From assembly GCA_964461835.1 (NCBI GenBank), contig CAYWVO010000006.1, positions 13,998 to 77,997 of the forward strand: a stretch of 64,000 nucleotides of DNA, in the 5' to 3' direction. A program made the translations under genes and the position numbers. Under the pieces are notes generated by a model. The model searched no databases. It was not told where the DNA came from and saw only the letters and a list, made by a program, of their open reading frames with translations. The stretch is from an uncultured Ignavibacteria bacterium (GTDB lineage Bacteria; Zixibacteria; MSB-5A5; WJJR01; JAJRUJ01). Below are positions 8,778-53,646 of this stretch, piece by piece; position 1 is the first letter of the stretch; the number at the start of each line of letters is the position of its first letter.

Positions 8778-10661
8778 ATGGCGAATTTCGAAACTGTGGA
8801 AGTCTCAACCGACCTGCTGATTGTCGGTGGAGGCATGGCGGCCTGCGGTGCGGCGGTGGAAGCTGCGCACTGGGCCAAAAAGAACGACCTGAAGGTCGCG
8901 CTCGTCGACAAGGCGGCGATGGACCGTTCCGGTGCGGTCGCGATGGGTCTCTCGGCGATCAACCAGTACGTTGACCTGAAGTCCGGTAACAACACAGTCA
9001 AGGATTATGTGGATTATGTCCGCAACGACTTGATGGGTATCACCAGGGAAGACCTCGTGGCCAATATCGCCCGGCACGTCGATTCGACGGTGCACCTCTT
9101 TGAAAAATGGGGTCTGCCGATCTGGAAGGACGAGCAGGGCAATTATGTGCACGAAGGTCGCTGGCAGCTGATGATCAACGGCGAATCCTACAAAGTCGTC
9201 GTGGCGGAAGCGGCCAAGAACGCGCTTGGCACCGACAATATTTACGAGCGTGTCTTCATTGTCGGCCCGATCATGTGTGGTGACAAGTGCGGTGGCGCGG
9301 TCGGATTCTCGGTGCGCGAAAACAAGTTCTACGTCTTCAAGTCTCGGGCTACGCTGGTTGCCCTCGGCGGCGCGGTGCACGTATTCAAGCCGCGGTCGGC
9401 TGGTGAAGGTCTGGGGCGCGCCTGGTATCCGCCGTGGAACTCGGGTTCCTCGGCTTACTTCACCTTGAAGGCCGGCGCTGAGATGACCTGTCAGGAAGTC
9501 CGGTTTATCCCGGTCCGCTTTAAGGACGCGTACGGTCCGGTTGGGGCCTGGTTCCTCTTGTTTAAGTCCCGCGCGACCAATGCCAAGGGTGAAGCCTACA
9601 TGGAGACCCGCCGCCCCGAACTCGAAAACTGGGCGCCGTACGGGAAGGTGAAACCGATTCCGGCAAACCTGCGTAACTGGCTGGGTATGCTGGATATCAT
9701 GGAAGGTCTCGGCCCGATCTACATGCGGACCGAGGAAGCGATTAAGAAGATCGCCGACGAATCGCCCGACGAAAAGGCCTACAAGAAGAAAATGAAAGAA
9801 CTTGAGGCCGAGGCGTGGGAAGACTTCCTGGATATGACCATCTCCCAGGCGATTCTCTGGGCGGCTACCAACACCGCTCCGGAAGAGAAACCGTCCGAAA
9901 TCGCCGCCGCGGAACCGTACTTCATCGGCTCCCACTCCGGCGCCTCGGGTGCGTGGGTCTCTGGTCCGGAAGACTTGCAGAACGACAAGACCAAGAGCGA
10001 CTACTTCTGGGGTTACGTGAACATGGCTACCGTGCCGGGGATCTTCTGCGCGGGTGACGCCTCCGGCGCCTCCAGCCACAAGTTCTCCTCCGGTTCGCAC
10101 GCCGAAGGTCGTATCGCAGCAAAGGGCGCGATTCAGTACCTCGTGAAAGAAAATCCGTCCCTGACTTACGACGATGCGGCGATCGAGAAGATGAAAGAAG
10201 AAATCCTGAAGCCGCTCGACCTGTTTGAACAGCACAAGGCCAGCTCCAGTGATCCGGACATCAATCCGAATTACATGAAGCCGAAGATGTTCATGTTCCG
10301 CCTGCAGAAGATTATGGACGAATACGCGGGCGGCGTGACGGCGCAGTTCACCACCAGCCAGTCCAACCTGGAAAAGGCGCTGGAACTGCTCGCGTTCCTG
10401 AAAGAAGACTCCGAGCATCTCGCAGCGTCCGACCTGCACGAACTGATGCGCTGCTGGGAAAATGTTCACCGGATGTGGCAGGCCGAAGCGCACGTGCGCA
10501 CGATTATGTTCCGCGAGGAGACTCGCTGGCCGGGCTACTACTTCCGCTCTGACACCCCGAAGATCAATGAAGACTGGAGAGTCTTCGTCAACTGCAAAGT
10601 AGATCCGAGTTCCGGTGAGTGGGAAATGATCAAGCGCCCGATTCACACCATTTATGAATAA
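8778..10661 (+). CDS. aprA: Adenylylsulfate (APS) reductase alpha subunit, a flavoprotein
   Basis: Has the FAD-binding N-terminus LIVGGGMAACGAA. Length 627 aa. An AGGAGG RBS precedes the start. Lies immediately after aprB. Confidence 0.95.
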   Translation: MANFETVEVSTDLLIVGGGMAACGAAVEAAHWAKKNDLKVALVDKAAMDRSGAVAMGLSAINQYVDLKSGNNTVKDYVDYVRNDLMGITREDLVANIARHVDSTVHLFEKWGLPIWKDEQGNYVHEGRWQLMINGESYKVVVAEAAKNALGTDNIYERVFIVGPIMCGDKCGGAVGFSVRENKFYVFKSRATLVALGGAVHVFKPRSAGEGLGRAWYPPWNSGSSAYFTLKAGAEMTCQEVRFIPVRFKDAYGPVGAWFLLFKSRATNAKGEAYMETRRPELENWAPYGKVKPIPANLRNWLGMLDIMEGLGPIYMRTEEAIKKIADESPDEKAYKKKMKELEAEAWEDFLDMTISQAILWAATNTAPEEKPSEIAAAEPYFIGSHSGASGAWVSGPEDLQNDKTKSDYFWGYVNMATVPGIFCAGDASGASSHKFSSGSHAEGRIAAKGAIQYLVKENPSLTYDDAAIEKMKEEILKPLDLFEQHKASSSDPDINPNYMKPKMFMFRLQKIMDEYAGGVTAQFTTSQSNLEKALELLAFLKEDSEHLAASDLHELMRCWENVHRMWQAEAHVRTIMFREETRWPGYYFRSDTPKINEDWRVFVNCKVDPSSGEWEMIKRPIHTIYE

Positions 10662-10781
10662 TGGGTAATCGGAGCTGATCCGTTCCTGATTGTGTTTTGA
10701 CAGTCCCCCAGGCTCGTCCGGGCCTGGGGGACAAATTTTCCGATCCTCCCGGCGTACCAGCAGCGGAGGAGGATCGATGTG

Positions 10782-11063
10782 ATGACGACGATGACCGAAC
10801 TGAAGACTGAATGCTGCCCCTACTGTAATCAACCGATGAAGAAATGGTCGCCACCACCGGATTCCAGTTGGGGTGACCACTGGCAGTGGGTGTGCTTCAA
10901 CGACGAGTGTGAGTATTTTCGCAACGGGTGGAAGTGGATGAAAGACCGCTATAATGTCCGTGCCTCCTATCGCCATCGGAAACACCCGATTACCGGCGAA
11001 ACGGGTCCTCTGCCGGTGTGGTCGCTGACGGCGCTACGGGCAGATATCATCGACGAGGAGTAA
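10782..11063 (+). CDS. Small Cys-rich zinc-ribbon-like protein, hypothetical
   Basis: Has CCPYC … CFNDEC cysteine pairs. A GGAGGAGG RBS lies 9 nt upstream of the ATG. Co-oriented directly downstream of aprA. Confidence 0.5.
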   Translation: MTTMTELKTECCPYCNQPMKKWSPPPDSSWGDHWQWVCFNDECEYFRNGWKWMKDRYNVRASYRHRKHPITGETGPLPVWSLTALRADIIDEE

Positions 11064-11100
11064 CTGCTTGTCGTGAATTTCGGGGACGAGAGGTAATATC

Positions 11101-11931
11101 ATGCAGGAAGAAATGAACAAGCTTAAAGAGGATATTCTGAAGAATTACCCCCGATTGCAAAAGAAAGACGTCTTTCAGTTTGCCTGTCATAAAGGCGTGC
11201 CGTGCTTTAATGACTGTTGTAGTGATGTGAATATCTTTTTGACTCCGTATGATATTATCTGCCTGAAGAACCATCTGGGTATCACCTCCGGTGAATTCTT
11301 GGAGAAATACACGGTCTCCCCGTTTGGGAAGAAGCAGAAGTACCCGGTGCGGCTGCTGAAGATGACGGAAACCGAAGATAAAAAATGCCCATTTGTCACC
11401 GATGAAGGTTGTAGGGTTTATTCCGACCGCCCCTGGTCCTGCCGCATGTATCCACTCGGGTTAGCCTCACCCAAAGAGGGCTCACCGGAATCGGAGGACT
11501 TTTACTTTTTGATGAAAGAACAGGTCTGCAAAGGATTTGAAGAGAAGCAGGAGCAGACCATCGAGGAGTGGCTGGAGGATCAGGGGATCAACGCCTATGA
11601 TGAAATGGGGCGGTTGTACAAAGAGGTCACCCTGCATGAGTTCTTTGAAGAGGACAAGGAGCTGACTCCTCCGAAGATGGAGATGTTCCATCTGGTGTGC
11701 TATGATATTGATACGTTCCGTAAATTTGTCTTCGAAAGCTCGTTTTTAGGGAAATTTGAGGTCGACGACCAGACGCTGGCGAAAATGAAAGAGTCGGACG
11801 TTGAGCTTTTCAAGTTTGGCGTACTGTGGCTGAAATTCGCGTTGTTCGGCGAGAAAACCATGAAGGTGAAGGACGAAGTCCGTGCCGCCAAGGAGCGCGA
11901 AATCCGCAACCGCATGACCCCGCGGGGATAA
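11101..11931 (+). CDS. YkgJ/UPF0153 family protein with a putative Zn/Fe-chelating CxxCxxCC domain
   Basis: Has CHKGVPCFNDCC and, downstream, KKCPF…GCRVYSDRPWSCRMYP, the typical YkgJ family signature. Length 276 aa. Confidence 0.7.
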   Translation: MQEEMNKLKEDILKNYPRLQKKDVFQFACHKGVPCFNDCCSDVNIFLTPYDIICLKNHLGITSGEFLEKYTVSPFGKKQKYPVRLLKMTETEDKKCPFVTDEGCRVYSDRPWSCRMYPLGLASPKEGSPESEDFYFLMKEQVCKGFEEKQEQTIEEWLEDQGINAYDEMGRLYKEVTLHEFFEEDKELTPPKMEMFHLVCYDIDTFRKFVFESSFLGKFEVDDQTLAKMKESDVELFKFGVLWLKFALFGEKTMKVKDEVRAAKEREIRNRMTPRG

Positions 11932-12018
11932 CTTCAGCCGTTACTTCGATCGATAGTTCTTAAAGAAATCCGCCAAAGGGTGGACCGCCCGCCGTTAGTC
12001 TTATGAGGAAGTGCCAAG

Positions 12019-13455
12019 TTAGCCCGTTTCATCTGGTGTGTAATAGTTAGTTGGAAAGTGTTTCAAATTGTAAATTGCAAAATCATGGAGTAATATCTGC
12101 TTCCAGTTAATTGGGAATATTTTTAACGGTTGTAATCTATCCAGATATACTGGATCTATTCTAAGCATAGTTTCTCTTCCCCGAGCCCCCCCTATCAGGA
12201 GATTTATCCTCTCAATGCCGAATTCGGTTTCCAAGATTTCCTTGATCTTAGTTGCGAATTCGTCTGCCCCAGTGCTAAAACTCAGAGCAATCCTCAGATG
12301 TCCTGTGCCCCCTGTGCGATCTGTAGGACTAATTCGGCTCCGCACGTCTGCGTAACCTCTAACAAAACTCATTATAACATTCCTATCCACTGTATCAGCG
12401 ATCAGATCAGGGATAATTGGCACCACCCCGCGGCGAGTAATTTGCAAGGAGGATAAATAATCATTAACGGCACATAAGACTGCTGAAGATCCATTAAATC
12501 TAATCCTGATCTTATAATCATAATCAGATACTTTTTGCACCGACGCCCTGTCGCCGGAATCTATTCTATCGAAGTACTCATTTAGAGAATCGCGAATCCC
12601 ATTTACGTCTTTTCGGAAAGCCTTAGCCTGGTCCATTCGGAAGCTCGTAATTCCATCGGCGAGGATGATGCCTTCATTCTCAGTACCCCGGTTAAATACG
12701 CCTTTGTGGTAAATGATTTCTAATAACCTATCATGCACCAATGTCCCCCCGGCGGCTATAAGACCCAAAAGGTATGCTATGTCTGCATTGGGGATAACCT
12801 GCATTGCCTCTATAGCGGCCTGGAATAGACTGTCTAACTCGTTCCTATGAGTAGCCTGCAGTCGTTGAACAAGAGGCGTATCTCCTCCTTGCTCATTGAA
12901 GAACCGCTCATATTGTTCGATAATTGCATAATGGTTTTCGGGCTTAATGGCGCAGGGTGAAGCCCAGATGGCTTCCACCTCTTCTTTCGTACTTCTCAGT
13001 ACACGATCTCTTGAGACGCCTTCAAGGAAGACATTTGCTTCCAGATTATGGGTTATTCCAGAAACAGTCAAATTGGAAGAGCCGATTATAACTTTCAAGG
13101 CAGAAGACTTTCTGAATAAATATATCTTAGAGTGTAATAGTCTTTTGCACTTTTCGTTCACTACTTTCTCTGATCTGTAAAATACTCTGCATTGTGAATT
13201 ACCGGGGATGGTAGCCAATTCCTCGATGATTTGTGGTTCCGTGAAGAACCGCTCTATGTCGAACACAACACGAAGTCTTCCACCCCTTCGCAAAAAAGAA
13301 ACAATATCTTCCCTGAATAGTTCAAATGCATTATACCTGGCAAAAGCAACTAGGAAGAAAATATCATCTGCCCAACGGAGACAATCCCGAATCTGTGACT
13401 CTAATTGTTTTCTTTCGGTGGTCAGAAGGTAAGCTTCCATTTGTTCAACAATCAA
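12019..13455 (-). CDS. PLD-superfamily (HKD-like) nuclease, the putative restriction endonuclease of a Type II R-M pair. Its C-terminal roughly 280-aa domain is uncharacterised.
   Basis: Has the partial HKD signature LHSKIYLF…IIGSSNLT near residue 110. It overlaps the upstream methyltransferase gene by 4 bp. GC is low, about 40-45%. Confidence 0.65.
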   Translation of the reverse strand: MIVEQMEAYLLTTERKQLESQIRDCLRWADDIFFLVAFARYNAFELFREDIVSFLRRGGRLRVVFDIERFFTEPQIIEELATIPGNSQCRVFYRSEKVVNEKCKRLLHSKIYLFRKSSALKVIIGSSNLTVSGITHNLEANVFLEGVSRDRVLRSTKEEVEAIWASPCAIKPENHYAIIEQYERFFNEQGGDTPLVQRLQATHRNELDSLFQAAIEAMQVIPNADIAYLLGLIAAGGTLVHDRLLEIIYHKGVFNRGTENEGIILADGITSFRMDQAKAFRKDVNGIRDSLNEYFDRIDSGDRASVQKVSDYDYKIRIRFNGSSAVLCAVNDYLSSLQITRRGVVPIIPDLIADTVDRNVIMSFVRGYADVRSRISPTDRTGGTGHLRIALSFSTGADEFATKIKEILETEFGIERINLLIGGARGRETMLRIDPVYLDRLQPLKIFPINWKQILLHDFAIYNLKHFPTNYYTPDETG

Positions 13456-14282
13456 TCTCGTTTCCGAAAGATCAAGATGAATTCGTGGACTTTGTTAACC
13501 CTGAATACGCTTGGATACCCCAAAGGCCGCAAATTGTTGTATTCTTGCTTTCTATTCCAGATAATAATATCATCCAATGCAAACCCAATATCTGCCATCA
13601 TCGCCTGAATATCCATATGCAACGGATAACATTTATCCCCTTTTCGAATATCCATCACGATTACACAACAGTACCCATTTGGTTGGGTTGCACGATAGAC
13701 TAGTTCGAAGATTTCCCTAAGTTGTGCAAAGAAATCGGAGTAATCTGTTACGTTTCCAAGGTCACTCGGGGTGTTTCCGTAGTTTCTCCGGTTCTTTCCA
13801 TCAGCCGTACGTTTTTGATTGAGAATATCCCAATATGGCGGTGAGGTTATGGTTAACCTCACCGAATTGGGTTCGACATATTTCGCTAGATTTCTTGCGT
13901 CTGCACGTTTCATTTTCGCGAGAGCACTGTCAATGGTGTTGAATATATCCGTCTGTTGTAATCGTCTTTTGTATAAATCGATAAATGCCGGACTTAATTC
14001 AATTCCCAGACTGCGCCTATCTAATGCAGATGCTGCCAACAAAGTGGACCCGCTTCCGGCAAAAGGATCTAAAACCAGGTCGGATTCGTGGCTAAAAATC
14101 TCAATCAAACGGCTACACAGCATTGTGGGAAACATTGCAGGGTGATTGAGCTTCAACTCCTGCGGTGATTTTCTTATGTCATCCCAAACTGAAACGGAGT
14201 ACTTTAGCCAGGTCCTTCCATCCAACCCTATTGTGTTCTTTGTGGATAATCCCATCATGCAAACTCCTAAACCACTTGCCAT
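13452..14282 (-). CDS. DNA methyltransferase, N4-cytosine or N6-adenine, with gamma-type motif order
   Basis: Motif I/X is HPAMFP…VLDPFAGSGST. It is followed by SPPYWD (motif IV). Length 276 aa. GC is low. Confidence 0.85.
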   Translation of the reverse strand: MASGLGVCMMGLSTKNTIGLDGRTWLKYSVSVWDDIRKSPQELKLNHPAMFPTMLCSRLIEIFSHESDLVLDPFAGSGSTLLAASALDRRSLGIELSPAFIDLYKRRLQQTDIFNTIDSALAKMKRADARNLAKYVEPNSVRLTITSPPYWDILNQKRTADGKNRRNYGNTPSDLGNVTDYSDFFAQLREIFELVYRATQPNGYCCVIVMDIRKGDKCYPLHMDIQAMMADIGFALDDIIIWNRKQEYNNLRPLGYPSVFRVNKVHEFILIFRKRD

Positions 14283-14600
14283 GCTCAGCCGGACAAAAAT
14301 ACGTAAATAGGTGTGCGTTTGGAAATCATATTTTATCTTACTGGGGAAAAGAATTGCAACTGTCTCTCCTTATTGAGGTTAGGGGCCCGCAAATCTATTT
14401 CCGTAAATCGAGACTTTGGTTTGATCCACTGTAACTGATTACGTGGTTTCGACAAACGCAAAATTGGACCCGATTACTTCTCAGCATTCCTGGAGGGCGA
14501 GCCACCCGATTCTTTCACAAGAAGGTTGGTTCTCCCCAGAATTTCCCTGCGCCGGCGCCGGCCAACTCGTATGGTATTTGATATATGTGGGGGGTCACCG

Positions 14601-39613: not shown

Positions 39614-40822
39614 TTGAAGGAGAATTGCGTTCTCCAAGCGGTATTTGGTATCCTTAAGGTGATGAGTGCTGCCATCGACACCTATCGTGGCTTTGAGCAG
39701 GGGCCAATCCGTCCGCCCAGTGAGGCCCGCAGCCTGTTTATTCGCCTCACTCGCAACTGCCCCTGGAATAAATGCACCTTTTGTCCGGTCTATAAAGGAT
39801 CAGACTTTTCGATTCGCCCGGTCGACCATGTGAAGCGCGATATCGACGAAGTCTACCGGCATATCGAGTATCTGCAAGAAGTGTATGATACCGGAATTGC
39901 GCCCGATCACCGGTTCCTCAATGACTACTCCGCCGATTTCGATCTGCCACAGATGATGGCGTTACAAGCGGCATACCACTGGTTGATCTCCGGGGGGATG
40001 CGGTCGGTGTTCTTGCAGGATGCCAACTCACTCATTGTCAAAGCTACTGACCTGGTGGAAATCCTCACGCATCTCCGGCAACGGTTTCCGCAGATTACGC
40101 GAGTGACGTCTTACGCGCGCGCCCAAACCGTAGCGCATCGTTCGTTCGATGACCTGCAAGCAATTGCCGAGGCCGGCCTTAATCGCGTGCATATCGGGTT
40201 GGAATCCGGATCGGATGCCGTGCTCAAACGCACCAAAAAGGGTGTGACCAAAGAACAGCATATTCGAGCCGGCCAGAAAATAGTCGCCGCAGGGATGGAA
40301 CTTTCGGAGTACGTCATGCCGGGCTTAGGGGGGCAAGAATTATCTACCGAGCACGCCCGCGAGACTGCCGAGGCACTCAATGAGATCAACCCACATTTTA
40401 TCCGTCTTCGTACGCTGGCCCTGCCGCGGGGGATTCCGCTCAGGGAAGACTTACAGGAGGGGAGTTTTCATCCCTGCAATGATCGGGAAATCACCGCAGA
40501 ACTCATCTCCTTAATTGAACAGCTCGACGGCATCACCAGCGTGATCACAAGCGACCATGTGCTCAATTTATTTGAAGATTTGGCGGGTCAACTACCGGAT
40601 GACAAACCGAAGATGCTGGACATATTACGCTCCTTCCTAGAACTCGAGCCCAAGCGGCAGCAGCTCTATCAGGTTGGTCGGCGGATGGGGTTCTTCCGCG
40701 GATTAGCGGATATGCAACAGCCCGGACGACTGGCGCGTGCCCGTCGGGCATACGACCAGCTGCGGGTCAGCGAAAATACGGTTGATGATGTGATTCGTGA
40801 ATTAATGATGCGGTTTGTATAG
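39614..40822 (+). CDS. Radical SAM superfamily protein
   Basis: Has the CxxxCxxC motif CPWNKCTFC. The true start may be an internal Met (MSAAIDTY). Confidence 0.75.
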   Translation: MKENCVLQAVFGILKVMSAAIDTYRGFEQGPIRPPSEARSLFIRLTRNCPWNKCTFCPVYKGSDFSIRPVDHVKRDIDEVYRHIEYLQEVYDTGIAPDHRFLNDYSADFDLPQMMALQAAYHWLISGGMRSVFLQDANSLIVKATDLVEILTHLRQRFPQITRVTSYARAQTVAHRSFDDLQAIAEAGLNRVHIGLESGSDAVLKRTKKGVTKEQHIRAGQKIVAAGMELSEYVMPGLGGQELSTEHARETAEALNEINPHFIRLRTLALPRGIPLREDLQEGSFHPCNDREITAELISLIEQLDGITSVITSDHVLNLFEDLAGQLPDDKPKMLDILRSFLELEPKRQQLYQVGRRMGFFRGLADMQQPGRLARARRAYDQLRVSENTVDDVIRELMMRFV

Positions 40823-40847: not shown

Positions 40848-42047
40848 CTATCCCTGCGGAGATTTCATGCGCTGTAACCGCGAGTCCATGGCACGGGCGC
40901 GCGTTGACCAGAAGAATTTATCGATGTGACGGCGAACTGGTGCGGCGGTGGCATAGAGATTTTCACCGGTCCCTACCTGATCGGTAAGATCGCGCAGGCG
41001 TTGTGCCAGTGCGCCGACTGAACCGTCGTAGAGATACATTTGGCAGTCGTTTACACAGAGGTGCTGCAAAAGCTCGGGGTATACGAGCCGCTCGGGCAAT
41101 AGTGGATATGCACCGGCAGCGATGGCTTCCAGGGTGGTGATCCCGAAAAACTCATGCTTCGCGGTGGAGACAAACACGTCCGCCTCCCGCAGAATTTCGC
41201 GGTATCGCTCGCGGGATTTCACGTATCCCCAGGCGCGGATATTCTCGGCATAGTATTCCCGTGCCCAGGAAAAAACCTCCGGTTGCCGGTCGTACTGTTG
41301 ACCGAGTACGTCAATGGTAAACGGGATCTCTGGCTCTTTCAGCAACTGCAGAGCGTTGAAGAAATCCTCCGGATTTTTATCGTGCTCCCACCGCGCGGCC
41401 CAGACCAGGCGGATTGGTCCCGGTTTTCGGGGTGGACGGTCTGAAAACCGGGGAATGCCGGGATATTGGGTTCTTGTGGGGATTTTTCCCACCCGCTCAA
41501 TTGGGATTTTTGGGGCGGGCATGCGTTTCAGGAATTGCTCAGCGGCGGTACGAAACACACGACGATGATAATCGGAGTTAAACCACACCTCGTGAGCTGA
41601 CAGATAAGAAACAATATTGGTAAAACCGAAGTGGTAATCGCGCTCACGTTCCTCACGCACCGGGTACGTCAATTGGTTCTCATGAAAGTATAACACGGTG
41701 GGGAGACGACGGATGCGCTCATCCACCTGCCCTTTGAATTCCAGGAGATTTAACATATCGGTACAAACCACGACATCCCAAGGTGGTGCAGTGCCGGAAT
41801 ATTCAGCCAAAAGATCATCGACCTGTTCGGCAAAGGTAATTGCCGCATGCCGCATCCGCCATTTCCAATGAGTGGCCGGTAGGGTCCACAAGGTCCATTC
41901 ATGATCGCTGTGGGAGATCCAGCCATCAAGAAATGCCCGATGACTCCCGCCGTAAAATGGTTCTAAAGCCAGGATATGTATGCTCAGCACCCGTCTTCCG
42001 TGAAATGGTAATATACCAAAAAGGACCGGCCCTTTGCTATGGGGCAA
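40848..42047 (-). CDS. Glycosyltransferase family 1 protein with an N-terminal DUF3524 domain (GTDC1-like)
   Basis: The N-terminus ILALEPFYGGSH is DUF3524-like. A C-terminal GT1 fold is present. Confidence 0.65.
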   Translation of the reverse strand: MPHSKGPVLFGILPFHGRRVLSIHILALEPFYGGSHRAFLDGWISHSDHEWTLWTLPATHWKWRMRHAAITFAEQVDDLLAEYSGTAPPWDVVVCTDMLNLLEFKGQVDERIRRLPTVLYFHENQLTYPVREERERDYHFGFTNIVSYLSAHEVWFNSDYHRRVFRTAAEQFLKRMPAPKIPIERVGKIPTRTQYPGIPRFSDRPPRKPGPIRLVWAARWEHDKNPEDFFNALQLLKEPEIPFTIDVLGQQYDRQPEVFSWAREYYAENIRAWGYVKSRERYREILREADVFVSTAKHEFFGITTLEAIAAGAYPLLPERLVYPELLQHLCVNDCQMYLYDGSVGALAQRLRDLTDQVGTGENLYATAAPVRRHIDKFFWSTRARAMDSRLQRMKSPQG

Positions 42048-48663: not shown

Positions 48664-49008
48664 TCAACGGTCTTTGCGGGCAAGGTAATTGTAAGGGTCA
48701 AAATACGAGTGCCAGAGTGTATCCGATGATCCAAACAGGTTCTCACCATAAAAATAATCGACCACCACCTCCCGCAGCCGGGCAAACTCTTTAAGGCGGG
48801 AATAAGTGGTCTGCGCATCCAGGCTCAGGTGCAGAAGTTCCAGCGCGCGTTCCACTGCCGCTTGTGCGTGCTCTCGTTTCCCTTTGCGGCGCCAGGTGAG
48901 GGCACGGATGACGTCATTGCCGATGTTGGCCATCTGTTCAGCGATTGACAATTGTCGCCAGCGCTCCAGCGTCAGCCGCTGGTGGTAACGATTTATCGGC
49001 TGATCCAC
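48664..49008 (-). CDS. Hypothetical protein of 114 aa, possibly HEPN-like (Rx4-6H-like RRKGKREH)
   Basis: Overlaps the upstream small ORF by 16 bp. The family assignment is speculative. Confidence 0.35.
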   Translation of the reverse strand: MDQPINRYHQRLTLERWRQLSIAEQMANIGNDVIRALTWRRKGKREHAQAAVERALELLHLSLDAQTTYSRLKEFARLREVVVDYFYGENLFGSSDTLWHSYFDPYNYLARKDR

Positions 49009-49334
49009 TGTTCGGTCACCGCAACAATTCGCTCTTGTGTTTGTTCATCCTCCACAAAACGGCTCACGTTTCCTTGTGAAGGTCTGATATTGATCAGTGA
49101 ATCAAATTCGAGGAAATCGTCACCGGTTTCATCGGGATAGAAATTGATTCCCCAGAGGTTCTTTTGAGCGGAACCGTCCTCCAGCAACAATGATTCCAAA
49201 TCGGCATGCATCTCGGCATCAAGCGCAATAAGTTCCCGGTCCACGTCCACGACGGCCTTAACCATCGTGCCGAAGGAATTTCGCGCTATCCGCTGCAAAT
49301 CCGCGATGGTAATCGGCGATTTTATCACCTGCAT
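48993..49334 (-). CDS. Hypothetical protein of 113 aa
   Basis: First gene of a two-gene overlapping pair. No recognisable domain. Confidence 0.35.
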   Translation of the reverse strand: MQVIKSPITIADLQRIARNSFGTMVKAVVDVDRELIALDAEMHADLESLLLEDGSAQKNLWGINFYPDETGDDFLEFDSLINIRPSQGNVSRFVEDEQTQERIVAVTEQWISR

Positions 49335-51476: not shown

Positions 51477-51564
51477 GACAAGTAATTTTGCTTCCAGGAG
51501 AAAAATGATATGGTTATGCTACCAGAAATGAGTATATAATTTTGAAGAATTGCCGGGGACTCAA

Positions 51565-52347
51565 ATGGCGCAGGTATCAAAAATAGAATGGACCGAATGC
51601 ACATGGAATCCGGTGACCGGGTGCGATAAAGTCAGCGCTGGATGTAAATATTGCTATGCAGAGGTTATGGCGCGACGCCTTAAAGCAATGGGGAACCCCC
51701 GATACCTCAATGGCTTCAACATTACGATTCACTGGGAAGTCTTAAACCAGCCGAAGCGATGGCGAAAACCCCGAATTATCTTTGTCAATTCAATGAGTGA
51801 CCTGTTTCATGAAGATGTCCCGCGGGATTTTATTCAAGCCGCCTTCGCGGTTATGAATGATTGCCCACAACACACCTTTCAAGTACTAACCAAGAGACCT
51901 CAAAGAGCCGCAGAGCTGGCGCCAGATTTGCCTTGGTCAAACAATATCTGGCTCGGCACCAGCGTTGAGAATCAACAGACCATACATAGAATACATCAAC
52001 TTCGCCGTATTCCTGCGCATATTCGCTTCCTTTCACTGGAACCGTTATTGGGTCGGATCAATCGCGTGCCATTACAGGGGATTCATTGGGTGATTGTGGG
52101 GGGAGAATCCGGCCCGCAGTCCCGGCCGATGGATCCCGAGTGGGTCAGAGTAATCCGTGATCGATGCTTACGTTATTCCGTGCCGTTCTTCTTCAAGCAG
52201 TGGGGTGGAAAGAACAAGAAGAAAGCGGGCCGGGAACTCGATGGAGAGTTTTGGGATCAGATCCCCGGTAACGGTAATGGGAATTCGGGGGATGTTGTAA
52301 ATGGGCGACAAACTTCCCACAACCTGGGAAACTCCGGAGCATACTAA
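51565..52347 (+). CDS. Phage Gp37/Gp68 family protein (DUF5131, three-Cys-motif)
   Basis: Has the N-terminal [27 protein letters not shown] signature. GC is low. The called ORF begins at a TTG at 51550. Confidence 0.8.
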
Positions 52348-53431
52348 AGCAAAACATCGGATAATTGCGACCTATCTCAAAGCCTGGATTCCAATTTTGT
52401 CCTATCAATTGAGGAATTACGGTATTCCGGGTAATGAACCGGTTATTGTCGATGGCTTCGCTGGACCAGGAATATATGCTGACGGGGTTGAAGGGAGCCC
52501 CATAATCGCCCTCAGAACCGCAGCAAGTTACGATCCACCGATACCAGTTCCTATTCGATTCATCTTCATCGAAAGAGACGAAAATCGGCATGAGTCTCTT
52601 GTTAATTCAATCGAAGATTTGAAATCAGAATATCCTGGATTGGAAATGAGCTGTAACATATTGCCCCCGATATGCGGAGAGTGTGACATCGAAATAAGAT
52701 CCGCAATTGATGTTTGTTTTGGGAAGGATGTGGCCGAGGTAGGGCCGGCGTTTTTCCTGTTAGATCAGTTCGGGTACTCACACGTGCCCATGGAATTGGT
52801 GTCTCTCATTATGAGTCATAAAATGTGCGAGGTTTTGACATTGGTAAATTGGAACGGCATGCAGAGATTCTTGGATCAAGAAAGAATCCGTCCCGCAATA
52901 AACGCCACATATGGTGATGAAGAATGGCATGTGGTGTTCGACCTTTCTCGCGATATGCGCGCCGCCTATATGCTGGAAGAATATGAGAAAGCCCTGTATA
53001 GAAACGCCGGCATAGAGTATGTGCTGCATTTTACCATGTGTGATCGGGGAAACAGGCCGATTTATTGGCTCTTTTTTGGGACGAATCACATCGAGGGACT
53101 GCGGGCCATGAAGAAGGCCCTTATTGACGAAGCCCCAAATGGCGACTATCGGTTCTCTGACAAATATGACTCTGGCAATTTGCCTCTACTTTCTGATTAT
53201 GATTACAATATTGATGCAAGCCATCTCCTGGCTCATTTCCGAGGACAGACAGTACAAACATCCGAGGTGGAAAAATTCGTTCTTCTCAAAACCCCTCATC
53301 GCCTCTTCAGGAAAGCTCTACGGGAGTTGTTGCGATCTGAAGAGCTGATCATAATCGAGTCTCCCAGTAATTACCGGCCTGGCACCTTCCGGAAAGATGA
53401 CCTGAAAAATATAGTCATTCGATTTAATTAG
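52301..53431 (+). CDS. Three-Cys-motif partner protein TcmP-like
   Basis: It sits immediately downstream of, and overlapping, the DUF5131 gene. The N-terminus W..P..HT.AKH.II..YL is consistent with the TcmP family. Length 376 aa. Confidence 0.7.
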
Positions 53432-53646
53432 TATCCCAATTGATGCCCTGGTGATCCCAACGCGTGCGGTGGATTTAGATTGCGGTGCCTGGAAACCACG
53501 CACCCTACGTTTCCTATTGGCAGGTGAGGAGGTCCGCCAACCACAAACAGTGTTAGCTCCCAAGAGCTGACCACCACGAACAAATACGAAGTCAACACCA
53601 CGTCCCTTGCTTGCTAACGGAACTCGGCGGCTCCAGCCGATAACGC

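Follow-up and report, generated by a model that had tools for sequence, protein, structure and literature searches.

Which function do the neighbouring genes for DUF5131 and TcmP, the three-Cys-motif partner protein, have in a stretch of 64,000 nucleotides from an uncultured Ignavibacteria bacterium (GTDB lineage Zixibacteria; assembly GCA_964461835.1, contig CAYWVO010000006.1, positions 13,998 to 77,997)? The whole stretch is termed the window in the following, and the two genes lie in it as an intact, co-oriented pair on the plus strand between 51477 and 53460. A preliminary description made from the letters alone had called the pair functionally unassigned, in agreement with the literature on DUF5131, TcmP and the PADLOC candidates PDC-M30/M41, where we found annotation-level mentions alone and no functional study. 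We put forward, with a probability of roughly one half, that the cassette is a mobile two-enzyme module dependent on S-adenosylmethionine (SAM), which modifies a nucleic-acid base, most likely in DNA, and is used in genetic conflict. The features underlying this proposal are as follows (window coordinates):

51477-51564, plus strand: upstream intergenic spacer, 35% guanine plus cytosine (GC); contains TATATAAT at 51533-51540, no sigma-70-type match
51565-52347, plus strand: gene of the DUF5131 (Gp37/Gp68) family, 260 aa, ATG start, PF07505 match; predicted radical SAM enzyme with a fold like that of spore photoproduct lyase (SPL)
51622-51654, plus strand: three-Cys codons C20-x6-C27-x2-C30, invariant in 64 homologues; predicted [4Fe-4S] ligands
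52301-52347, plus strand: overlap of 47 nt, shared by the stop region of DUF5131 and the start of TcmP
52301-53431, plus strand: TcmP gene, 376 aa, TIGR04474 match; predicted class I SAM-methyltransferase fold with C-terminal winged helix
52451-52471, plus strand: TcmP motif I, D51-G-F-A-G-P-G57, SAM-binding glycine loop, conservation assessed in 83 sequences
52763-52777, plus strand: TcmP motif IV, D155-Q-F-G-Y159, counterpart of the amino-methyltransferase motif (D/N)PP(Y/F)
53198-53428, plus strand: C-terminal winged helix-turn-helix (wHTH) domain of TcmP, GMT-like, approximately residues 300-376, based on PF22560 in homologues and on the model
53432-53646, no strand: non-coding stretch between TcmP and a convergent Ser/Thr kinase gene, 215 bp, 55% GC

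Both proteins exceed the cut-offs of their families. Pfam PF07505, formerly named 'phage Gp37/Gp68', matches DUF5131 with E 1.5e-101 and 339.4 bits (cut-off 28.9) over residues 10-239 and profile positions 2-243 of 243, and NCBIfam TIGR04474 matches TcmP with E 2.1e-53 and 181.9 bits (cut-off 53). The two-gene cassette that had been proposed is thus present and, with its adjacent genes and three-Cys motif, is a full member of the TIGR04474/PF07505 pair without any difference. ATG 51565 was taken as the most plausible start of DUF5131, the mechanical list of open reading frames (ORFs) starting at TTG 51550. The 47-nt overlap of the two genes suggests operonic or translationally coupled expression. 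Since the N-terminus of TcmP lines up with homologues starting at residue 1, the overlap stems from the unconserved, low-confidence C-terminal tail of DUF5131.

The cysteines C20, C27 and C30 (Cx6Cx2C) and a fourth one, C201, are invariant among 64 DUF5131 sequences. The peptide quoted in the preliminary description for the three-Cys motif corresponds to residues 9-32; its three motif cysteines are indeed conserved, and only the C of 'WTEC' is not. An AlphaFold model calculated with the 64 homologues as input (pLDDT, the predicted local distance difference test, 82.7) has the predicted fold of a radical SAM barrel, that is a partial TIM barrel, with spore photoproduct lyase as top structural match. 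The NCBIfam model 'radical SAM mobile pair protein A' also matches DUF5131 (E 2.1e-24, under the equivalog cut-off), and in RadicalSAM.org (PMC9477430) it makes up megacluster 5-2, next to which spore photoproduct lyase is listed as 5-3. DUF5131 is accordingly regarded here as a divergent subgroup of radical SAM enzymes, SPL-like in fold and outside the SPL family proper, in which C20, C27 and C30 are predicted to bind a [4Fe-4S] cluster for SAM cleavage. SplB (PDB 4fhc) differs from it considerably: the two share 11% identity, the cysteine spacing is Cx3Cx2C in SplB and Cx6Cx2C in DUF5131, the lengths are 340 and 260 aa, and DUF5131 needs a methyltransferase-like partner.

For TcmP, the model is of high quality (pLDDT 91.1; predicted template modelling score, pTM, 0.89) and has the predicted fold of a class I methyltransferase, with the RNA methyltransferases RlmJ, Trm1, Trm5a, TYW2 and TYW4 as best structural matches. 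Structure prediction, which the preliminary description had suggested as a check, has thus returned enzymatic folds with conserved active-site motifs for both proteins. Among 83 sequences, G52, F53, A54 and G55 of motif I are invariant and D51, P56 and G57 occur in at least 90%; in motif IV, which is located at the end of model strand 150-156, the invariant residues are D155 and G158, with F157 present in at least 90%. Further near-invariant positions are the acidic E91 at the end of strand 2, the N-terminal helix H14-T-x-A-K18-H19 and G65-S-P. By inspection only, TcmP and E. coli RlmJ have five elements in common and in identical order (N-terminal H..KH, D.xAG.G.Y, GSP.IA, E and D..Y), which read HADVLKH, LDTHAGAGRY, GSPLIA, TELH and IDPPYE in RlmJ; IDPPYE corresponds in position to motif IV of TcmP, and Trm1 has a DPFG motif that can be likened to it. 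The C-terminal 75 or so residues were modelled with high pLDDT as a winged helix of the pattern H-E-H-H-E-E; the Pfam family GMT-wHTH (PF22560) is a weak match in the window protein (E 0.08) and a significant one in homologues (8.6e-12 in P0101, 6.6e-7 in P0002). The variable parts of TcmP are mainly residues 101-150, 185-235 and the wHTH domain. TcmP is without PHROG match, while DUF5131 matches PHROG 2045. On the basis of the modelled fold, TcmP probably transfers a methyl group to a nucleic-acid base.

These structural matches bring up the alternative that the pair modifies rRNA or tRNA as an accessory function, TcmP methylating an RNA base in the manner of RlmJ or Trm1 and DUF5131 elaborating it, with a role in translation or in the modification of host or phage tRNA. 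The RNA-acting best matches of TcmP, the housekeeping genes that flank the cassette in the window and a precedent on tRNA, the consecutive action of Trm5 and the radical SAM enzyme TYW1 in wybutosine synthesis, speak in its favour. On the other hand, the patchy distribution suggestive of horizontal gene transfer, the low GC content, the defence-rich neighbourhoods and the location in a prophage lysogeny module, all documented below, speak against it, the nearest functional relatives of DUF5131 act on DNA, and TcmP carries a wHTH domain. RNA modification is accordingly regarded as quite unlikely. RlmJ (23S rRNA m6A2030) and Trm1 (tRNA m2,2G26) have no significant sequence relationship with TcmP, which differs from both by a helical insert, the C-terminal wHTH domain, its mobility and its constant pairing with a radical SAM gene.

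In a scan of one genome per species, at least 501 relatives of TcmP were obtained; the loci of the best 80 were examined, with partners detected by a six-frame scan with hidden Markov models. The 80 genomes belong to Planctomycetota, Myxococcota, Acidobacteriota, Nitrospirota, Chloroflexota, Alphaproteobacteria, Actinomycetota, Patescibacteria, Bacillota and several archaeal lineages. A radical SAM gene adjoins TcmP in 77 loci; one of the remaining three is cut by a contig end and two are without detectable partner. Together with IMG/VR contigs carrying TcmP, where 13 of 14 have a partner (two tandem SPL-like genes in three cases), this bears out the conserved, obligate pairing that had been claimed, in the sense of a near-obligate one. 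The partner is DUF5131 in 62 loci, an SPL-like PF20903/PF04055 gene with the motif GCPLDCSYCY in nine and another PF04055 gene with the motif GCTHGCPFCY in six. Three radical SAM clades are therefore interchangeable beside TcmP, and the constant property of the partner is radical SAM chemistry. DUF5131 is mostly located upstream of TcmP in the same orientation with a gap of mostly -19 to +140 nt, some of the 62 arrangements being convergent or divergent, and the two are fused in a protein of 616 aa (P0057). Co-evolution of the partners is seen in a set of 58 pairs (Mantel r 0.47, p 0.001), with a mean pairwise identity of 52.6% for DUF5131 versus 38.8% for TcmP and the former more conserved in 95% of the comparisons. 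In total, the TcmP family comprises 10,202 clusters at 50% identity for E <= 1e-3 and 6,189 for E <= 1e-10, and the pair is patchily distributed across phyla in a manner typical of horizontal gene transfer. A plasmid-borne trait was considered and rejected, as TcmP is rare on plasmids (19 of 72,556 records).

Two further arrangements were seen on the side. In three thaumarchaeal loci (Nitrosopumilus, Nitrosarchaeum and Nitrososphaerales; L043, L044 and L054, at about 9000-12200), both partner types are present, a divergent DUF5131 gene on one side of TcmP and an SPL-like radical SAM gene on the other. Two SPL-like genes in tandem, which may represent the NCBIfam 'radical SAM mobile pair A/B', are found at locus L028 and in the viral contigs L175-L177.

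We infer substrate, reaction order, phenotype, cluster binding and SAM cleavage from the folds, motifs and contexts described here. TcmP would bind the polymer, select and flip out the target base and probably N-methylate it. DUF5131 would work in complex with TcmP, its 5'-deoxyadenosyl radical abstracting a hydrogen from the base or from the newly installed methyl group, and the outcome would be a further-modified base. Such a sequence may resemble that of Trm5 and TYW1, where methylation precedes the radical step. A working precedent for the chemistry proposed for DUF5131 is gp53 of phage M6, an SPL-like radical SAM isomerase that remodels a base substituent in DNA during thymidine hypermodification (PMC8989533). 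The parallel lies in the chemistry described for gp53, which differs in that its partners are a 5-hydroxymethyldeoxyuridine kinase, an amino-acid transferase and a pyridoxal phosphate enzyme, not a protein with methyltransferase fold. Type II restriction-modification systems resemble the cassette as mobile, low-GC elements with a methyltransferase-fold protein bearing amino-methyltransferase motifs; they differ by their nuclease, which is lacking in the cassette and is not a conserved neighbour at the 80 loci, around which gene families are highly heterogeneous.

The preliminary description had also thought the pair to be phage-derived, and this turned out to be half right. DUF5131 is present in 179 of 50,697 phage records, whereas TcmP, found by tblastn in five records from three Gordonia phages, is mostly cellular. 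In Gordonia phage Easley, the gene for TcmP (gp39, annotated as 'methyltransferase') is co-oriented with the immunity repressor gene and starts 4 nt after it; the convergent DUF5131 gene (gp38, which shares 58% identity with the one in the window) follows, and then genes for a metalloprotease, a helix-turn-helix protein and an integrase. Gordonia phage Bosnia has the same layout, with gp45, overlooked by tblastn, as a divergent TcmP according to hhalign (probability 99.6%), so that TcmP is under-counted in phages. In both cases the pair resides inside the lysogeny module. The slot co-expressed with the repressor also holds the defence genes 43/44 of CarolAnn and rexAB of lambda (PMC6426606). 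In Bosnia (L085), genes for a phosphoribosyl transferase and a DprA-like protein (303-1960) adjoin the integrase gene in the same lysogeny region and may be a further prophage accessory or defence pair.

Fifteen other phages that were examined encode a longer, solo DUF5131 in an early replication/recombination module, with genes for RecT, RusA and exonuclease among its members. A DNA methylase or methyltransferase is annotated at a distance of at most five genes in eight of the 15 (Bakery, Che9c, RcapNL, Squirty, EnalisNailo, Jung, Savbucketdawg and Atu_ph08) and in none of the other seven within view, a count without control that is only suggestive. Bakery gp63 resembles a C5-cytosine methylase by its DLFCGAGG motif (by inspection). 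Comparison of the TcmP profile by hhalign with Che9c gp68 and with the Bakery gp63 methylase revealed no relationship. In the mycobacteriophages Che9c (L084, 5065-5490) and Bipper (L086, 3921-4382), a gene for an ASCH-domain protein follows directly after solo DUF5131 with a 4-nt overlap.

The solo genes lend themselves to the explanation that the pair is a mobile DNA-repair module, in which DUF5131 reverses a specific lesion like SPL and TcmP is a lesion-recognizing, base-flipping subunit and no methyltransferase. Their company of recombination genes would fit, as would SPL as top structural match of DUF5131 and the invariant C201, which could act as H-atom donor just as a conserved cysteine does in SPL. 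However, TcmP has kept near-invariant SAM-binding and catalytic methyltransferase motifs and outpaces its partner in evolution, as repair factors do not usually do, the neighbourhoods show an enrichment in defence genes, the pair is part of a prophage immunity module, and window DUF5131 has no match to PF20903, the spore photoproduct lyase family. Repair is thus considered an unlikely function.

A stronger version of the proposed base modification makes use of the solo genes as well. The pair would write an undescribed DNA base modification, with TcmP placing an N-methyl group on a flipped base and DUF5131 activating the C-H bond of this group, without need for O2, and converting it into a bulkier or cross-linked adduct; solo phage DUF5131 would act likewise on methyl groups introduced by neighbouring C5 or other DNA methylases. 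To cells and prophages the mark would serve for self/non-self discrimination or for blocking the replication of invaders, a mechanism of immunity or epigenetics that would be nuclease-free, radical-based and shared by Bacteria and Archaea. We offer this version tentatively and consider it doubtful in its full extent.

An involvement in defence is suggested by genomic neighbourhoods. Both window proteins strongly match PADLOC candidates (TcmP the TcmP-like PDC-M30A with 9.8e-38, DUF5131 PDC-M30B with 1.9e-112 and PDC-M41B with 7.6e-117), and their genes are adjacent and co-oriented as in PDC-M30/M41. The PDC systems are unvalidated candidates nominated through 'guilt-by-embedding', and among 100 strains of P. 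aeruginosa, 32 are predicted to have PDC-M30 (PMC10855318). The cassette is hence uncharacterized, as had been supposed, and at the same time already catalogued. The 292 genes located up to three genes from TcmP pairs matched 142 and 144 different Pfam families. They include housekeeping genes (PGK, TIM, MurJ, DNA polymerase III alpha) as well as type I restriction-modification subunits, serine recombinases, rve integrases, XRE/IrrE regulators, DarT, DUF499 and HerA. A conserved third component was rejected, since the largest neighbour clusters other than radical SAM genes are serine recombinases in four loci and SNF2 helicases in three.

Among PADLOC families, 151 and 123 were matched by these neighbours (E <= 1e-10), compared with three for an equal-sized control of 146 neighbours of the housekeeping acs gene (acetyl-CoA-synthetase-like) in metagenome contigs; redundant models inflate these counts and the acs loci come from a different collection, and the contrast is still large. 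The matches near TcmP pairs comprise complete-looking type I restriction-modification systems, Azaca ZacABC, DarG of DarTG, HmaBC, MADS and PDC-S05. In addition, the S. meliloti TcmP protein SMa2243 has been listed as part of the same putative unit as hna, a validated defence gene (PMC12445080). The defence association that had been anticipated is therefore seen in neighbourhoods elsewhere, which are far richer in defence matches than the control; the copy in the window, unlike the typical PDC-M30/M41 setting, is not embedded in any defence island. Of the two outcomes that the preliminary description had named as refuting, a uniform core-genome distribution lacking any link to defence islands and a structure prediction devoid of enzymatic fold or active site, neither was obtained.

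Defence could also be imagined in the manner of viperin, with DUF5131 producing a chain-terminating or toxic free-nucleotide analogue during infection and TcmP as sensor, regulator or tailoring enzyme. For DUF5131, PADLOC returned PDC-M30 and PDC-M41 models alone and no viperin (pVip) model. Moreover, TcmP resembles polymer-acting enzymes and has a wHTH domain, and the partners that replace DUF5131 are SPL-like, not viperin-like. We consider such an activity improbable. Mobility, the defence-rich neighbourhoods, the position in the prophage immunity module and the fast evolution of TcmP together point to genetic conflict as the setting of the base modification favoured here. Its role could be the exclusion of phages or marking by host or prophage, which is conceivable at somewhat less than even odds; that it shields the carrier's own DNA from restriction is rather unlikely.

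The cassette itself is compositionally foreign and was acquired horizontally, as had been proposed from its GC content. The reported 46-50% GC is borne out by 47.0% for the cassette (50.3% for DUF5131, 45.8% for TcmP; dip z = -2.4), whereas the reported 58% of the host context is not: the window mean is 54.0%, and values of 55-58% are confined to the immediate neighbours of the cassette. At third codon positions, GC is 55% in DUF5131, 48% in TcmP and 66% in the neighbouring upstream acs gene. A single other region of the window, 11.0-13.4 kb, falls below the GC content of the cassette. Foreign origin is also in line with the scattering over many phyla and with 80 relatives of acs (63-69% identity, metagenome contigs), beside which neither DUF5131 nor TcmP is ever found. 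These relatives share no synteny with the window, so that the pre-insertion (empty) site could not be shown. Neither att-like direct repeats nor inverted repeats, a nearby tRNA or an integrase flank the cassette, which is a solitary insertion. Upstream of it lie genes for an S9 peptidase, a small DUF5674 pair and acs, and downstream those for a Ser/Thr kinase, a DUF1722 protein, a LonC-type protease and a surface protein with a type IX secretion tail.

The spacer in front of DUF5131 is AT-rich, in agreement with the preliminary description, and the roughly 200 bp of downstream non-coding sequence were measured as 215 bp. The claim of a promoter-like tatataat at 51526-51533 is not supported: TATATAAT is really located at 51533-51540, a sigma-70 promoter scan found no acceptable -35 partner for it, and its two copies in the window, versus 0.67 expected, were reached in 16 of 100 shuffles. 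Promoter and terminator scans of the window gave counts equal to or under shuffle expectation, with no terminator-like site immediately 3' of the TcmP stop. The absence of recognizable promoter and terminator and the solitary position among housekeeping genes would be compatible with inert or decaying cargo that has no current function in this genome. Against this stand two full-length ORFs in which all invariant family residues are kept, and the 75% identity of DUF5131 to its closest relative, making decay highly improbable.

A number of observations weigh against the proposed conflict-related base modification and must be set against the evidence given so far, in addition to the limits of the PADLOC and methylase counts already stated. 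No mobile-element or defence gene occurs within about 12 kb of the cassette, whose flanks are ordinary cellular genes. The radical SAM assignment is complicated by the missing PF04055 match of window DUF5131 (E <= 0.01) and by its Cx6Cx2C motif in place of canonical CxxxCxxC. As for the latter, Che9c gp68 has the spacing Cx9Cx2C, and the first loop of the three-Cys motif is therefore variable; variant cysteine spacings also occur in other bona fide radical SAM members. Comparison of the DUF5131 profile with a PF04055 partner by hhalign is weak (probability 27%), with the Cys motifs aligned and a three-residue insertion relative to CxxxCxxC, and yielded nothing with an SPL-like partner. With regard to TcmP, hhalign against E. 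coli RlmJ gave a probability of 4% over 21 columns, in which the motif I segment ('LDTHAGAG') alone aligns, and the family profile found no methyltransferase in the PDB, where searches by sequence and family profile returned nothing meaningful for either protein. The kinship of TcmP and RlmJ is therefore one of structure and of motifs as judged by inspection. Furthermore, the nearest structural relatives of TcmP act on RNA rather than DNA. The cassette contains neither a nuclease nor another effector, leaving phage exclusion by modification alone unexplained.

Family, pairing and status as candidate defence system have been catalogued before (TIGR04474, PF07505, PADLOC PDC-M30/M41), and the window adds to them a divergent, rather isolated member, the TcmP protein being just 43% identical to its nearest relative. 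New are both fold assignments, the three radical SAM partner clades, the placement in prophage immunity modules and the roughly controlled contrast in defence neighbourhoods. The matter is of some weight, as the TcmP family is large, spans Bacteria and Archaea and is nearly always accompanied by a radical SAM enzyme. A new nucleic-acid modification, if true, would join gp53 of phage M6 as the second case in which DNA bases undergo radical SAM chemistry, and could explain the many solo DUF5131 genes of phage early regions; a defence function would be one without recognizable nuclease or toxin. Direct targets for mutagenesis are C20/C27/C30 and C201 in DUF5131 and D51-G57, E91 and D155 in TcmP.

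Some further features of the window deserve mention. Its lowest-GC stretch (42-46%) extends from 11000 to 14300 and includes a minus-strand ORF (13452-14282) that matches beta-class N4-cytosine/N6-adenine DNA methyltransferases (2zie, E 1.4e-31), next to another one (12019-13455, minus strand) with weak matches to the BfiI-type restriction endonuclease 2c1l (5.5e-5) and to the helicase N-terminus 7clg (1.4e-5). This looks like a type II restriction-modification pair, and thus like another module of horizontal origin, at a distance of about 38 kb to the cassette. Just upstream of acs, a GC dip of 48-52% (48664-49334, minus strand) coincides with overlapping genes for a 114-aa protein without Pfam match and a 113-aa DUF5674 protein, which could form one more small accessory module of two genes. 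Radical SAM proteins are represented in the window a second time by a PF04055 gene at 39614-40822 on the plus strand, beside a glycosyltransferase gene (40848-42047, minus strand) with a QTMAN_N domain, the N-terminal domain of tRNA-queuosine mannosyltransferase, and a weaker 'GT4-conflict' match. Finally, a host from the FCB group (Bacteroidota and allied phyla) is suggested by the Por_Secre_tail, the type IX secretion sorting domain, in the surface protein of 1255 aa downstream of the cassette (58678-62445, plus strand).

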